Shown one piece after another: positions 23,810 to 31,439 of a DNA stretch of 64,000 nt. Both the position numbers and the translations under genes were made by a program. The notes below the pieces were generated by a model. The model did not search any database and was not told the origin of the DNA. It worked only from the letters and a program-made list of their open reading frames with translations. Origin of the DNA: Clostridiales bacterium (lineage in GTDB: Bacteria > Bacillota > Clostridia > Oscillospirales > Oscillospiraceae); the NCBI GenBank assembly GCA_021201185.1, contig JAJQFJ010000052.1, positions 113 to 64,112 on the forward strand, written 5' to 3'. Numbering within the stretch: the first letter of the stretch is position 1; every line of letters starts with the position of its first letter.

Positions 23810-24922
23810 ATGGAAATATATCTTTATATTGTTGCAGCGGTGATCATCCTTGGAATGATTATGCCGCAGCAGGGACGACAGAAAAAATACTATATCATTG
23901 CCATGGCAGTGCTACATGCCTTTGTGTGTGGATTCCGATATATGTACCTGACCGGCGATCTGCGAAAATACGCCGCTGGCTACTATAGTATCGTAGACAG
24001 CGGATGGTTGAGCGATGACGTGCTGCAAGAGGGAAGAAACACCGGCTTTTTCATGCTGACGAAGCTGTTTTCCGGCCTGACAAACGGTGATTTCCAGATT
24101 TTTTTGATTTTTCTCGCCATCGTGACAGAAGCTCTGGTCGCGGTAGCCATTTATAAGTACTCTCCGATTCCCTGGTGCAGCTATCTGGTGTGGAACTGCC
24201 TGGGCTTCTATGTGTCCGGGTTCAGCTCCATCAAGCAGGGCCTGGCTATGGCCATTCTCATGTGGGCGTTTTACTATATCGTTGAGGAGCGGCCGGCCAA
24301 ATTTACCGCCGTGACGCTGCTGGCCGGGTTTATCCATATGCCGGCGCTGTGTTTCCTGCCGGCCTACTGGCTGGCAAAGCGTAAAATCACGTTTAATACC
24401 ATCGTTGCTTATCTGCTGGCCGGGGCAGTCCTGTATCTGTTCCGAACGCAGGTGGTCAATTTTATCGCCACCTTCTACTATGAGGACGAGACGTTCGTTC
24501 TGCAGGAGAGCGGCCTGGGCGGACGCTTTTTCATGATCATAGCTATCCTGCTCTGCGGACTGGTTTTGAAAGGCTTTCAGGAGAAAAACTTCTCAAAGCT
24601 GTTCAACCTGCTGATCGTTGCCGCCATCTTCCAGATGCTCTCCGGTTTTGACAACATCTTTACCAGACTGGCAGACTATTATCTCCAGTTTTCCGTTCTG
24701 TACATCCCCATGCTGTTCAGCAACTATTCCTGCAACACGGAAATCGACCGGTCCCAGAGCAGAGCTATTCTCCCATTTAATGACCGAAGCCTGAAAATTA
24801 TGCTTGCAGTGGTCGTTGTGGTTTTGATCTGGTTCTATTATAATTACAACATCGGCGTTGAGATCGAATACGCAGTCGACGATTACACAAATTTCCGCTT
24901 TATGTGGGATGTCACCAGTTGA
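23810..24922 (+). CDS. EpsG-family / Wzy-like multi-pass membrane polymerase
   Basis: About 10 hydrophobic segments; GFRY..GD...Y, SSIKQGLAMAI, AGFIHMPA and TRLADYY patterns. Confidence 0.75.
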   Translation: MEIYLYIVAAVIILGMIMPQQGRQKKYYIIAMAVLHAFVCGFRYMYLTGDLRKYAAGYYSIVDSGWLSDDVLQEGRNTGFFMLTKLFSGLTNGDFQIFLIFLAIVTEALVAVAIYKYSPIPWCSYLVWNCLGFYVSGFSSIKQGLAMAILMWAFYYIVEERPAKFTAVTLLAGFIHMPALCFLPAYWLAKRKITFNTIVAYLLAGAVLYLFRTQVVNFIATFYYEDETFVLQESGLGGRFFMIIAILLCGLVLKGFQEKNFSKLFNLLIVAAIFQMLSGFDNIFTRLADYYLQFSVLYIPMLFSNYSCNTEIDRSQSRAILPFNDRSLKIMLAVVVVVLIWFYYNYNIGVEIEYAVDDYTNFRFMWDVTS

Positions 24923-24943
24923 ACAGACGAAGGAAGAAAAGAT

Positions 24944-26020
24944 ATGAAATTGTGCAGCTTCATAATACCGGTTTACAACTGCGGCGGTTGTTTGGAAGGT
25001 TGCGTCGCCGGAATACAGTCGATGCAGCTGGAGCAGTACGAAATCATTCTGGTGGATGACGGCTCCGGAGACGATTCCGGCGTCATTTGTGACCGGTTGG
25101 CGGAGCGATATGATGAAATCAGGGTTTTCCATCAGGAGAACAAGGGCGTCTCGTCGGCCAGAAATCGTGGCATCGAGATGTCAGAGGGAGAACTGATTAT
25201 TTTCCTGGATGCAGACGACACCATGGAACCGGAAAAGCTACGGCGGTTGATTCATACGATGGAGGATGATGATACCCTTGACCTGCTGATTTATGGTATA
25301 TCCTTCGATTACTACTACCACGGCAAATGCTACCGCCGGGATGAGCTGGCCTATCCGGAGACGGAGCGGATGCTGCGAGAGGCGTGGACAAACGCACTGA
25401 TTCAGCTATACCTTTGTAACTCTATTACCCCTGTCTGGAATAAAATCTTCAGGAGAAAAAGTATTCTTGACAACCAGATCAGGTTCAAAAGTGAAATGTT
25501 TTATTACGAGGATATGGAATTCTCCCTCCGTTATCTGGCTCATTGCAATACTATATACAATACTGAAGAGATCGTCTATCACTATCGCCAGCAGGAGGAC
25601 GAGGGAAATGCAAAACGTCGTCTTCTGCGCATCGACCACCTGCCGGACTTAGTTTCTCAGCTTGAAGCGGCACTTCAAGATATGATCGCCCATCTAGGCT
25701 TGGGTGAGGATGCAGTGAACGCAGCAAACGAAATCTTGGTCCAATTTTATTTGATACAGGTACAAGAAAAAATCGCCACTTCAAATCGGCGGCAGATCGC
25801 CCAAATCTGCCGTGAGATTTCCGACTGGATAAAGGACAGGCCGGACGCCGCACTGGATAGTCTGTCCGATGAAAGCCGGGATTATCTGGAGGCGGTCATA
25901 AATGGGCGCATCAACTGGCTCCTGGCGAACAGACGGTATACGGCAATCAGACACAGGATAGCTGTGTTCGTCAAAAATACGCCACTGTATCAACGTCTGA
26001 AACAGAGCCGGTATGGTTAG
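24944..26020 (+). CDS. Glycosyltransferase family 2
   Basis: SFIIPVYNC, LVDDGSGD, ENKGVSSARNRG and FLDADD. Confidence 0.9.
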   Translation: MKLCSFIIPVYNCGGCLEGCVAGIQSMQLEQYEIILVDDGSGDDSGVICDRLAERYDEIRVFHQENKGVSSARNRGIEMSEGELIIFLDADDTMEPEKLRRLIHTMEDDDTLDLLIYGISFDYYYHGKCYRRDELAYPETERMLREAWTNALIQLYLCNSITPVWNKIFRRKSILDNQIRFKSEMFYYEDMEFSLRYLAHCNTIYNTEEIVYHYRQQEDEGNAKRRLLRIDHLPDLVSQLEAALQDMIAHLGLGEDAVNAANEILVQFYLIQVQEKIATSNRRQIAQICREISDWIKDRPDAALDSLSDESRDYLEAVINGRINWLLANRRYTAIRHRIAVFVKNTPLYQRLKQSRYG

Positions 26021-26038
26021 AGCAGAAAGGGCAGGCAG

Positions 26039-29271: not shown

Positions 29272-29289
29272 ACAGAGCGAGGTATTTTT

Positions 29290-30147
29290 ATGGAAGAAAA
29301 ATTTCAAACAACAATTGTCCCCAAAACCGGTTGGTTCGACCTGAAACTGAAAGAGGTTTTTGCTTACAGAGACTTGATTTTCCTCTTTGTAAAGCGGAAC
29401 TTCGTCTCCAAGTACAAGCAAACCATCCTTGGCCCTGCGTGGGCGGTTATCCAGCCGCTGCTTACCACGGTGGTCTTCACCCTTGTGTTCGGCAATATCG
29501 CCGGTCTTGCACCGGATGGAGTGCCCTCTTTTGTGTTTTACCTCTCCGGCACGATCCTTTGGACCTATTTCAGCAACTGCTTGACGACTACGGCAAACAC
29601 ATTCGTTGCCAACAGTGCAACGATGGGAAAAGTCTATTTTCCGCGGTTGGTCATGCCGATTTCAACGGTGATCTCCGAGCTGATCAGTCTGGCGATTCAG
29701 TACGCGTTCCTGCTGATTTTCATGGCCTATTACCTGATTACGGAGGACAGTCTGGCTCCGAACTGGTTCGTGCTGATGACGCCGCTGCTTGTGATTCAGC
29801 TGGCGCTGCTGAGCCTGGGATGCGGAATCATTATCTCCGCATTGACAACCAAGTACCGTGACCTGGCCATGTTGGTCGGTTTCGGAACTCAGCTTTGGAT
29901 GTATGCCTCCCCGATCGCCTATGATATGTTCAGCATGGGCGCATTTGCCATCGGCGGGAAATGGCACACCCTCTATATGTGCAACCCGGTGACATCTATC
30001 GTGAATGTATTTCGCTATGGCTATCTGGGGATAGGCACCATCGAGTGGAACTATTACTTCATCGGCTGGGTGACGACGCTGGTCTTTTTGTTCCTCGGCA
30101 TCATCCTGTTCAGCCGGGTGGAAAAGACATTTATGGATACAGTGTGA
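29290..30147 (+). CDS. wzm: Polysaccharide ABC exporter permease
   Basis: YRDLIFLFVKRNFVSKYKQTILG, KVYFPRL, YRDL and SPIAY; six TM segments. Confidence 0.9.
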   Translation: MEEKFQTTIVPKTGWFDLKLKEVFAYRDLIFLFVKRNFVSKYKQTILGPAWAVIQPLLTTVVFTLVFGNIAGLAPDGVPSFVFYLSGTILWTYFSNCLTTTANTFVANSATMGKVYFPRLVMPISTVISELISLAIQYAFLLIFMAYYLITEDSLAPNWFVLMTPLLVIQLALLSLGCGIIISALTTKYRDLAMLVGFGTQLWMYASPIAYDMFSMGAFAIGGKWHTLYMCNPVTSIVNVFRYGYLGIGTIEWNYYFIGWVTTLVFLFLGIILFSRVEKTFMDTV

Positions 30148-30158
30148 GGGCAGAAAAA

Positions 30159-31439
30159 ATGGAAAAGACGGCAATTAAAATAGACCATGTTTATAAGGAG
30201 TATCGTCTGGGTGCCATCGGTGGCGGCACACTGCGGGGCGATTTGCAGTCATGGATGGCCAGAATCCGAGGCAAGGAGGACCCGAACAGCAAAATCGGGA
30301 CGGATGCCAGCATGCACAACGGCGACAGATTCCTTGCCCTGGATGACGTGTCCTTTTCAGTAAAGCAGGGGGAAGCAGTCGGCATCATCGGACATAATGG
30401 AGCCGGAAAATCGACCCTTTTGAAGCTGCGCTCCCGGGTGACGGCTCCCACAAAGGGCACCATATCCTATAACGGACGCATTGCCTCCATGCTGGAGGTG
30501 GGCACCGGTTTTCATCCGGAGCTGACCGGACGGGAAAATGTCTACATGAACGGCGCTATCCTGGGCATGACAAAGGCAGAAATTGATAAGAAGTTTGACC
30601 AGATCGTGGAATTTGCGGAGATGGAGGAATTCATCGACACTCCTGTCAAACGCTATTCCTCCGGTATGTATGTCAAGCTGGCCTTTTCCGTGGCGGCCCA
30701 TCTGGACAGTGAGATTATGGTCATGGACGAAGTGCTTGCGGTGGGAGACATGAAGTTCCAACAGAAATGCCTGGGACGCATGGGAGACGCTGCAAATAGT
30801 GAGGGCAGAACGGTTCTGTATGTCAGTCACAACATGAACACGATTCGTCAGCTCTGCACACGCTGCATCGTGCTCGATCATGGGCATTTGATCTTCGATG
30901 GGGAGACGGAAAAGGCTATCGAAATTTATATGGATCGCAGCAGAGATTTAAGTTGTAAAAAATCATATGTAGACTATGTGCGTCCTTCCTGGCTGACTCG
31001 GGACGAAGTGCGTATCATTTCTGCGGAGTATGTGCAGAAGGGTAATTGTACATTCAATAAAACTGAGCGGATAAGAATTAAATTTGAGGTCGTATATCAG
31101 AAAAAAGTTGATAATCTTGGACTGCGATTTGAAATATTAAATGCTGTGGATACGCCTGTTGCCACATCCATTACGATGCTTCCGCTCAATGTAAGTGATG
31201 AAACGCAAACATTTGAAATTGAGTACAGTATTGAAAACCTTGTTGAGGGTGAATATAAGAGCTTCTATACCTTTTTCTGCAAAAATGAATTTGGTAATAA
31301 TCGGGATGTTGACAATGTTCCAGGATTACAAATAGTCGTTGATGACAATGACACAAGAGATCATATAGACTGGAAGTCCACTCATTGGGGAAATGTGAGA
31401 TTGCCAGCGGGAGTATTATTGGAGGAAAACGATGTCTAA
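30159..31439 (+). CDS. wzt: Polysaccharide ABC exporter ATPase with C-terminal (Wzt_C-like) extension
   Basis: GHNGAGKST, YSSGMYVKLAFS, MDEVLAVGD and VSH; about 170 extra C-terminal residues. Confidence 0.92.
   Translation: MEKTAIKIDHVYKEYRLGAIGGGTLRGDLQSWMARIRGKEDPNSKIGTDASMHNGDRFLALDDVSFSVKQGEAVGIIGHNGAGKSTLLKLRSRVTAPTKGTISYNGRIASMLEVGTGFHPELTGRENVYMNGAILGMTKAEIDKKFDQIVEFAEMEEFIDTPVKRYSSGMYVKLAFSVAAHLDSEIMVMDEVLAVGDMKFQQKCLGRMGDAANSEGRTVLYVSHNMNTIRQLCTRCIVLDHGHLIFDGETEKAIEIYMDRSRDLSCKKSYVDYVRPSWLTRDEVRIISAEYVQKGNCTFNKTERIRIKFEVVYQKKVDNLGLRFEILNAVDTPVATSITMLPLNVSDETQTFEIEYSIENLVEGEYKSFYTFFCKNEFGNNRDVDNVPGLQIVVDDNDTRDHIDWKSTHWGNVRLPAGVLLEENDV

Follow-up and report, generated by a model that had tools for sequence, protein, structure and literature searches.

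Wzx and Wzm/Wzt exporters alternate in a family of EpsG-containing glycan loci of Clostridia

Bacterial surface glycans are conventionally assigned to one of two export routes: units that leave by Wzx are polymerised outside the membrane by Wzy, whereas chains that leave by an ABC transporter are finished inside. The locus described here, an island of ~25 kb at positions 14639 to 39852 of a 64,000-nucleotide stretch of a Clostridiales bacterium genome (contig JAJQFJ010000052.1; the whole stretch is called the window below), carries components of both, a Wzy-type protein of the EpsG family and a Wzm/Wzt ABC exporter. With the Wzx/Wzy loci of Firmicutes, such as Bacillus subtilis epsA-O, which contains EpsG, and the streptococcal cps loci, it shares a Bac_transf primer, many single-action glycosyltransferases (GTs), the EpsG-family protein, pyruvyl and acetyl decoration, and the presence in the genome of bacterial tyrosine kinase (BY-kinase) and LytR-CpsA-Psr (LCP) partners; among its own sister loci are canonical Wzx/Wzy loci. 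It differs from them in the absence of Wzx from the locus, in a Wzm/Wzt pair that occupies the slot or, putatively, the role of the flippase, and in Wzz/BY-kinase and LCP genes that are unlinked.

The ABC exporters of O antigen and teichoic acid (Aquifex aeolicus and Escherichia coli O9a Wzm-Wzt; TarGH) resemble that of the window in both Wzm and the nucleotide-binding domain (NBD) of Wzt, and in the variable, β-rich Wzt C-terminus. Wzt proteins of the O8/O9a type carry a serotype-specific carbohydrate-binding domain (CBD). Unlike in these systems, no processive GT or terminator was identified in the window's locus, a Wzy-type gene is kept and the exporter alternates with Wzx. The slg clusters of Geobacillus and Paenibacillus encode a Bac_transf primer (WsaP), Wzm/Wzt and WsaB, with no Wzx, Wzz or LCP; the locus is like them in having one such primer, Wzm/Wzt and one polytopic extracytoplasmic transferase, and in lacking the same three functions. 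WsaB, however, is an oligosaccharyltransferase of the O-antigen-ligase family (PF04932), whereas the protein here belongs to PF14897, and PF04932 has no representative in the genome. A precedent for Wzx-independent ABC flipping of a lipid-linked glycan is provided by Campylobacter PglK and Helicobacter Wzk, ABC transporters that flip glycans linked to undecaprenyl diphosphate (Und-PP), which are then used by an outer-face transferase. These are exporters with fused transmembrane domain and NBD that feed an oligosaccharyltransferase or ligase, in contrast to the Wzm/Wzt channel and Wzy-type protein found here. Finally, the loci for rhamnose-rich cell wall polysaccharides of Lactococcus lactis (cwps) and Enterococcus faecalis (epa) likewise encode an ABC exporter alongside a membrane protein resembling an extracytoplasmic polymerase. 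They make two chains, using two primers, rhamnan backbone genes, a flippase of the Wzx type (WpsG) and a GT-C enzyme that joins the chains (PMC9574508), none of which was seen here.

Relatives were sought by a single-protein scan of genome contigs, which gave five loci, and by a metagenome scan with an alignment as query. In all, 99 loci were collected that have in common the core PGT…EpsG-GT2-Stealth-GT4, in which PGT is the polyprenyl-phosphate sugar-1-phosphate transferase that acts as primer and Stealth a predicted hexose-1-phosphate transferase. The order PGT…GT4-EpsG-GT2-Stealth-GT4 was syntenic in all relatives examined, and the 3' end often held a metallophosphoesterase (MPE) and an NTP_transf_5 gene, which recurred whichever exporter was present. 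Wzm/Wzt was found in 52 of the 99 loci and Wzx in 18; none had both and 29 had neither. Within this last group, 27 loci extended for less than 5.5 kb after EpsG, one ended at a contig edge inside the pyruvyl-transferase gene and one, L082, continued into BY-kinase genes and further GTs, past the fetched flanks (L, G and C numbers denote loci, genomes and contigs). Besides the window, the Wzm-Wzt carriers comprise L027 (95% EpsG identity), L010/L011, L031, L012-14, L032, L030, G265, G392 and L128-130; Wzx is carried by L017 (90% EpsG identity, and 97-98% in the 5' genes), L016, L028, L029, L015 and L019. In L027, L028 and L029 a GT4 and a pyruvyl transferase are followed by either Wzm-Wzt or Wzx. 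When EpsG was clustered at 95% identity, 16 clusters contained ABC-type loci only, 5 contained Wzx-type loci only and 1 contained loci of both types; L017, omitted because of a frameshift, would be a sixth Wzx-only lineage. Assuming independence, the occurrence of exactly one exporter in all 23 has a p of ~1e-5 by a rough calculation. The pairing of EpsG with Wzm/Wzt, kept in 52 related loci, is far beyond chance.

On the EpsG tree six exporter switches were counted, at least four of them forced by well-supported branches, and the exporter labels were clustered no more than shuffled labels. The Wzx genes of the sister loci fell into three lineages with at most 24% identity between them, all in the same or a nearby slot. 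As these lineages are unrelated, Wzx was recruited repeatedly. The near-isogenic loci L074 and L065 differ in essence by Wzx versus Wzm-Wzt, with DNA identities of 98% from PGT to GT4 (5 kb), 95% over GT4-EpsG-GT2, 86% for Stealth and 90% for MPE-NTP5. L065 has Wzx at the position where L074 has an extra acyltransferase, and in L074 Wzm, Wzt and a 299-aa GT-like gene are inserted 5' of the phosphoesterase. The two alleles of the GT4 that precedes the exporter position (GT4e), a gene kept in ABC and Wzx versions, have diverged.

A homology-free scan for flippases, counting open reading frames (ORFs) of at least 395 aa with at least 7 hydrophobic segments, detected a long polytopic ORF in 17 of the 18 Wzx loci and in one of the 52 ABC loci. 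This lone match, in L110, is a Na+/H+-antiporter-family protein and was rejected as a flippase, leaving no hidden flippase in any of the 52 ABC-type sister loci. The 405-531-aa genes without Pfam match in L012-14, also considered as candidates, proved to encode soluble proteins with a PP-loop-like motif. A gene of 298-299 aa after Wzt was likewise discarded as an ABC-specific partner, being present in three Wzx loci and absent from the window. Across the sister loci compared, no polymerising GT, terminator or second primer co-varied with Wzm/Wzt. The Wzx versions are canonical Wzx/Wzy loci and the ABC versions lose only Wzx and keep all the rest, the simplest reading of which is that Wzm/Wzt would export the lipid-linked unit that leaves by Wzx elsewhere, for EpsG to polymerise. 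On this comparison we consider the equivalence of the two exporters probable.

Partners of a polymerase route adjoin some members of the family. The ABC-type loci L010 and L030 have BY-kinase/polysaccharide co-polymerase (PCP) genes physically linked to them, the Wzx-type locus L028 has an LCP gene as its neighbour, and 3' of the EpsG core of L082 lies a trio of an Ig-like protein and two BY-kinases (L082:14374-18275), collinear with a trio on contig C85 of the window's own genome at 36-41% identity. The linked genes of L010 and L030, the L082/C85 trio and the LCP gene of L028 fit a polymerase-type route with wall attachment.

The exporter itself is of the channel type. The Wzt NBD matched A. 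aeolicus Wzt (E 1e-59), TagH/TarH and mycobacterial RfbE, and Wzm matched A. aeolicus Wzm (6m96_B, E 4e-14), mycobacterial Wzm and TarG. Identity across ABC-type loci is 72-97% for Wzm and 82-96% for the Wzt NBD, compared with only 20-37% for Wzt residues 251-426. The contrast extends to the window and L027 (Wzt at 16766-18040), with 97% identity in Wzm, 96% in the NBD and 21% in the C-terminal domain, and a recombination breakpoint lies inside wzt between the two. The C-terminal domain was modelled as all-β (predicted local distance difference test score, pLDDT, 80-92). In Foldseek the top matches of Wzt were the full-length, CBD-bearing A. aeolicus structures 7k2t/8dku (~415 columns, E 2e-22), with NBD-only entries ranking below; the PF14524 match of the window's Wzt was weak (E 3e-4), and the same family was recorded for the L010 and L031 homologues. 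The start of Wzt was set at 30159, which gives 426 aa, the same as in its homologues. The variability of the C-terminal domain follows the pattern expected of a glycan-specific recognition module, and we regard it as a putative glycan-binding domain. A hypervariable domain of this kind on a conserved Wzm/NBD body suggests that the exporter handles the variable glycan of its own locus.

The EpsG-family protein scored 115 bits against PF14897 (cut-off 30.1), aligning with model positions 2-286 of 326, and is the single member of this family in the genome. Its AlphaFold2 model (pLDDT 84, predicted template-modelling score 0.87) is all-helical with ~11 helices. The relatives form more than 120 clusters at 54% identity or more, all of ~370 aa. 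By family membership and homology we attribute to it the predicted activity of a Wzy-type polymerase. Foldseek found no structural relative in the Protein Data Bank (PDB; best E 1.7), and PDB sequences searched with a profile yielded no match. In the closest Wzx-type sister, L017, the EpsG gene (8930-10041) is split by a frameshift in that metagenome-assembled genome, which may be a sequencing error or decay. A Gtr-type three-component side-chain route (GtrB/GtrA/GT-C) was ruled out, as the GT2 adjoining EpsG has no transmembrane (TM) helices; neither is there a small membrane ORF (GtrA-like flippase) in the locus, nor room for one.

An earlier note on this DNA, made from the sequence alone, had described a locus with one priming enzyme, an EpsG-like protein and Wzm/Wzt, but no Wzx, Wzz or LCP. 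Pfam and genome-wide family searches bore this out. The Bac_transf protein is the sole primer of the island; EpsG, Wzm and two acyltransferases are its only polytopic proteins, no further polytopic ORF was present, and the close spacing of the genes leaves no place for a hidden one. The genome-wide searches, which included PF01943, gave no Wzx, Wzz or LCP match on the window's contig (C68), all such matches lying on other contigs. Among the island GTs only single-domain GT2, GT4 and GT32 proteins were seen; no processive polymerising GT and no kinase or methyltransferase terminator was identified, and backbone genes of the rml or Rgp type are missing from the locus, as is a second primer.

The statement that the Wzy partners are lacking thus holds for the locus and not for the genome (2.2 Mb in 88 contigs, 99.4% complete), which has Wzx, co-polymerases and LCP proteins on other contigs. 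Two LCP genes are located on C56 and C66. Two Wzz-BY-kinase fusions lie on C85, 3' of the Ig-like protein (C85:23321-27229) and away from any glycan locus. Of three Polysacc_synt proteins, two look MurJ/SpoVB-type by sequence and the third (C64:34033-35343) is a Wzx. It belongs to a second glycan island (C64:28419-53336, minus strand), which is flanked by an integrase, is lower in G+C and has the order integrase, PGT, GT2, LicD, GT-like gene, lipoprotein, two giant surface proteins (1453 and 1615 aa), GT4, acetyltransferase, Wzx, FnlA, split FnlB, FnlC and CpsB/C/D. No Wzy-type gene was recognised in this island, which, with a Wzx and no Wzy, mirrors the puzzle of the window, a Wzy-type protein and no Wzx. 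A 435-aa C64 protein was rejected as Wzy, being soluble and GT-like. For PF04932 (O-antigen ligase, Wzy_C) no match above cut-off was found in the genome; the best, a 'Wzy_C' match on C48, is a RodA/FtsW-type protein and was discarded as a ligase.

We infer the following pathway. The PGT would prime undecaprenyl phosphate, on which ~10 cytoplasmic transferases, each with a single action, would work with Stealth and the pyruvyl transferase to assemble a large lipid-linked unit. The channel-type Wzm/Wzt exporter would then move the finished Und-PP-linked unit across the membrane, as Wzx does in the sister loci, the serotype-specific Wzt C-terminal β-domain probably recognising the distal end of the unit. 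At the outer face EpsG would polymerise the units, the unlinked BY-kinase/PCP proteins of C85 would set the chain length, and attachment of the chain to the wall would fall to the LCP enzymes encoded on C56 and C66. The complete model, in which Wzm/Wzt stands in for Wzx, exports lipid-linked units and leaves their polymerisation to EpsG outside, is given a probability of about 0.5. Among the explanations offered by the earlier note, ABC export of units for outside polymerisation is the one favoured by the comparison, Wzx or Wzm/Wzt being present but never both, with repeated switches between them. The identities of the genes, their synteny and the alternation of exporters are observed; the substrate, the polymerisation and the partners acting in trans are inferred.

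Several observations weigh against this model. The systems from which Wzt proteins with a CBD are known export finished, capped polymers. The EpsG family, at 52-95% identity, is unusually conserved for a Wzy, polymerases of that type being usually much less conserved; moreover, because no solved structural relative exists, polymerase and ligase roles of EpsG could not be separated. Each complete genome inspected with an ABC-type locus (the window's own with C64, G265 with C8 and G392 with C2) also keeps at least one Wzx-like gene elsewhere. The conservation of EpsG, the C-terminal domain of Wzt, which is similar to the CBD of A. aeolicus Wzt, and the lack of Wzz in the locus would suit a protein that, after the same exchange of exporters, ligates a glycan of ~11 sugars or a cytoplasmically finished chain to an acceptor (protein, lipid or another wall polymer), much as WaaL does in O-antigen routes that depend on an ABC transporter, or WsaB when S-layers are glycosylated. 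We nevertheless consider a ligase unlikely: the protein falls in PF14897 and not in PF04932, of which the genome has no true member, BY-kinase/PCP genes, a hallmark of Wzy systems, adjoin three sister loci (L010, L030 and L082), and LCP genes are found next to L028 and, twice, in the genome itself.

An ordinary Wzx/Wzy system served by a Wzx in trans, for instance that of C64, with Wzm/Wzt exporting another substrate or a fraction of the product, would account for a Wzx that lies beside CpsB/C/D with no Wzy recognised there, and for the Wzx-like genes kept elsewhere in G265 and G392; enterobacterial loci with wzy but with wzx elsewhere have been reported (PMC7198725). It leaves unexplained the strict mutual exclusion of Wzx and Wzm/Wzt within one locus family. 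The C64 Wzx is moreover unrelated to those of the sister loci (at most 21% identity) and lies in a separate island that is flanked by an integrase and has a PGT of its own, the unlinked Wzx is not a consistent orthologue, homologues of the C64 type being present in at least four genomes without an EpsG locus and absent from G392, which carries one, and no extra biosynthetic genes for a separate substrate accompany Wzm/Wzt. Taken together this makes a Wzx in trans quite improbable. The coexistence of an ABC exporter with Wzy-like genes in cwps/epa loci (PMC9574508) and the three further GTs 3' of Wzt in the window would allow an ABC-exported backbone and a Wzy-polymerised side chain joined outside, as in the rhamnose-rich wall polysaccharides. 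Yet the WpsG flippase and the GT-C joining enzyme of those loci have no counterpart among the 24 island genes, there are no rml/Rgp-type backbone genes or second primer, ABC-type loci such as L012 and L128 have no extra GTs beyond the shared core, and the arrangement is one conserved unit in relatives, so that two chains are very hard to credit. Nor does the comparison support the proposal of the earlier note that two loci had fused: Wzm/Wzt is not accompanied by a second primer or a set of backbone genes, and the relatives share a single conserved locus. That note would have given up a hybrid route on finding wzx and a co-polymerase elsewhere together with two independent loci in relatives; Wzx with CpsB/C/D (C64), two BY-kinases (C85) and two LCP proteins are indeed encoded elsewhere, but the relatives have one locus, not two. 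The coordinates of the island genes are collected in Table 1.

Table 1. Genes of the glycan island and its borders (positions in the window)
Feature	Positions	Strand	Evidence and remarks
SufS/SufBD/SufC	8998-13529	minus	core genes left of island
ParE-toxin-like ORF	13830-14264		in 1.1-kb spacer between suf operon and island, at G+C drop
small Bac_transf-type polyprenyl-phosphate sugar-1-phosphate transferase (primer, PGT)	14639-15325	+	PF02397 E 1e-50; NCBIfam EPS_sugtrans E 3e-53; first island gene
aldo-keto reductase and split transketolase (N and C subunits)	15363-18252	+	PF00248, PF00456, PF02779/PF02780
five cytoplasmic GTs: GT4, GT2, GT4, GT4, GT4	18294-23800	+	Pfam Glycos_transf_1/2; 0 TM segments
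EpsG-family polytopic membrane protein (Wzy-type)	23810-24922	+	PF14897 E 5e-33
GT2 adjoining EpsG	24944-26020	+	PF00535 E 9e-32; 0 TM segments, soluble; syntenic in all sister loci
Stealth hexose-1-phosphate transferase	26039-27040	+	Stealth CR1-CR4
acyltransferase-3, broken	27072-28090	+	PF01757 split on ORFs 27072-27440 and 27422-28090
GT4 (GT4e)	28099-29271	+	PF00534 E 1e-31; ATG at 28099; precedes exporter position in sister loci
Wzm, ABC-2 permease (ABC2_membrane)	29290-30147	+	PF01061
Wzt, ABC_tran with weak Wzt_C match	30159-31439	+	426 aa; ATPase residues 1-250, C-terminal domain 251-426
GT2, variable 3' half	31432-32418	+	PF00535 E 1e-33
fusion of polysaccharide pyruvyl transferase, 2x[4Fe-4S] and FrhB-like domain	32448-34748	+	PF04230, Fer4, PF04422/PF04432
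GT32-like transferase, membrane-anchored MPE, acyltransferase-3, GT2, NTP_transf_5	34736-39852	+	Pfam; island end
nitroreductase gene	starts 39929	convergent	high G+C; right of island, with a GAF protein

The island comprises 24 genes, 23 intact and one split acyltransferase, all on the plus strand with gaps of 0-56 bp, and reads as a single operon whose product would be a complex heteroglycan decorated with sugar phosphate, pyruvate and acetyl substituents. Its low G+C stands out in a genome of ~64%, values falling to 45-52% between 14 and 40 kb, and by codon-position G+C and Pfam searches ordinary core genes border it on both sides. The ParE-toxin-like ORF in the left spacer may mark an insertion boundary. 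The aldo-keto reductase and split transketolase, kept 3' of the PGT in most sister loci, are assigned to the modification of a sugar or substituent. In place of this trio, a subfamily that includes L012-L014, L025 (G392), L050 and L101 has genes for an HpcH/HpaI aldolase, a 2-hydroxyacid dehydrogenase and the PP-loop-like 405-531-aa protein, which suggests a different non-sugar substituent; the same subfamily has a divergent PGT (~35% identity). The split acyltransferase-3 shows a 10-bp deletion at ~27413 relative to the intact L016 homologue and is likely a pseudogene, possibly an assembly error.

Stealth is the best-conserved core enzyme (63-98% identity between loci). It is kept across the locus family together with the MPE (35533-36450), and the pair recalls, speculatively, a logic in which a sugar phosphate is added and then uncovered. 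The FrhB-like part of the pyruvyl-transferase fusion resembles the β subunit of F420H2-dehydrogenase, a redox partner without evident explanation here; in L017 (14302-18188) the pyruvyl transferase and the FrhB-like module are separate genes flanking Wzx.

An EpsG homologue was found in 3 of 401 genomes sampled from the order and was absent from the genome of the same genus in that sample. This patchy distribution, with the low G+C, points to horizontal transfer of the island. The locus family is common in human-gut metagenomes, one Wzm variant being indexed in 579 blocks of the collection. Full-text literature searches found no description of Wzm/Wzt replacing Wzx; wzm/wzt co-located with wzx/wzy has been reported in Yersinia O:7/O:19, and loci with wzy only have been reported and explained by wzx elsewhere. 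The operons compared here are homologous in other respects and form a natural series along which Wzx and Wzm/Wzt interchange and the Wzy-type protein is retained. They could, at about even odds, represent a third, ABC/Wzy route, common in human-gut Clostridia, in which a Wzm/Wzt pair with a glycan-specific domain is a natural alternative to Wzx for very large Und-PP-linked units and exporters are swapped as cassettes by recombination. If so, the length or type of substrate would be no rigid divide between exporter classes, the CBD of Wzt could serve as quality control of the repeat unit, and prediction from marker genes (wzx/wzy versus wzm/wzt) would misclassify such loci. The locus family probably makes a major, variable surface antigen of uncultured commensals, and the near-isogenic Wzx and ABC pairs offer a direct experimental handle on the exchange of exporters.

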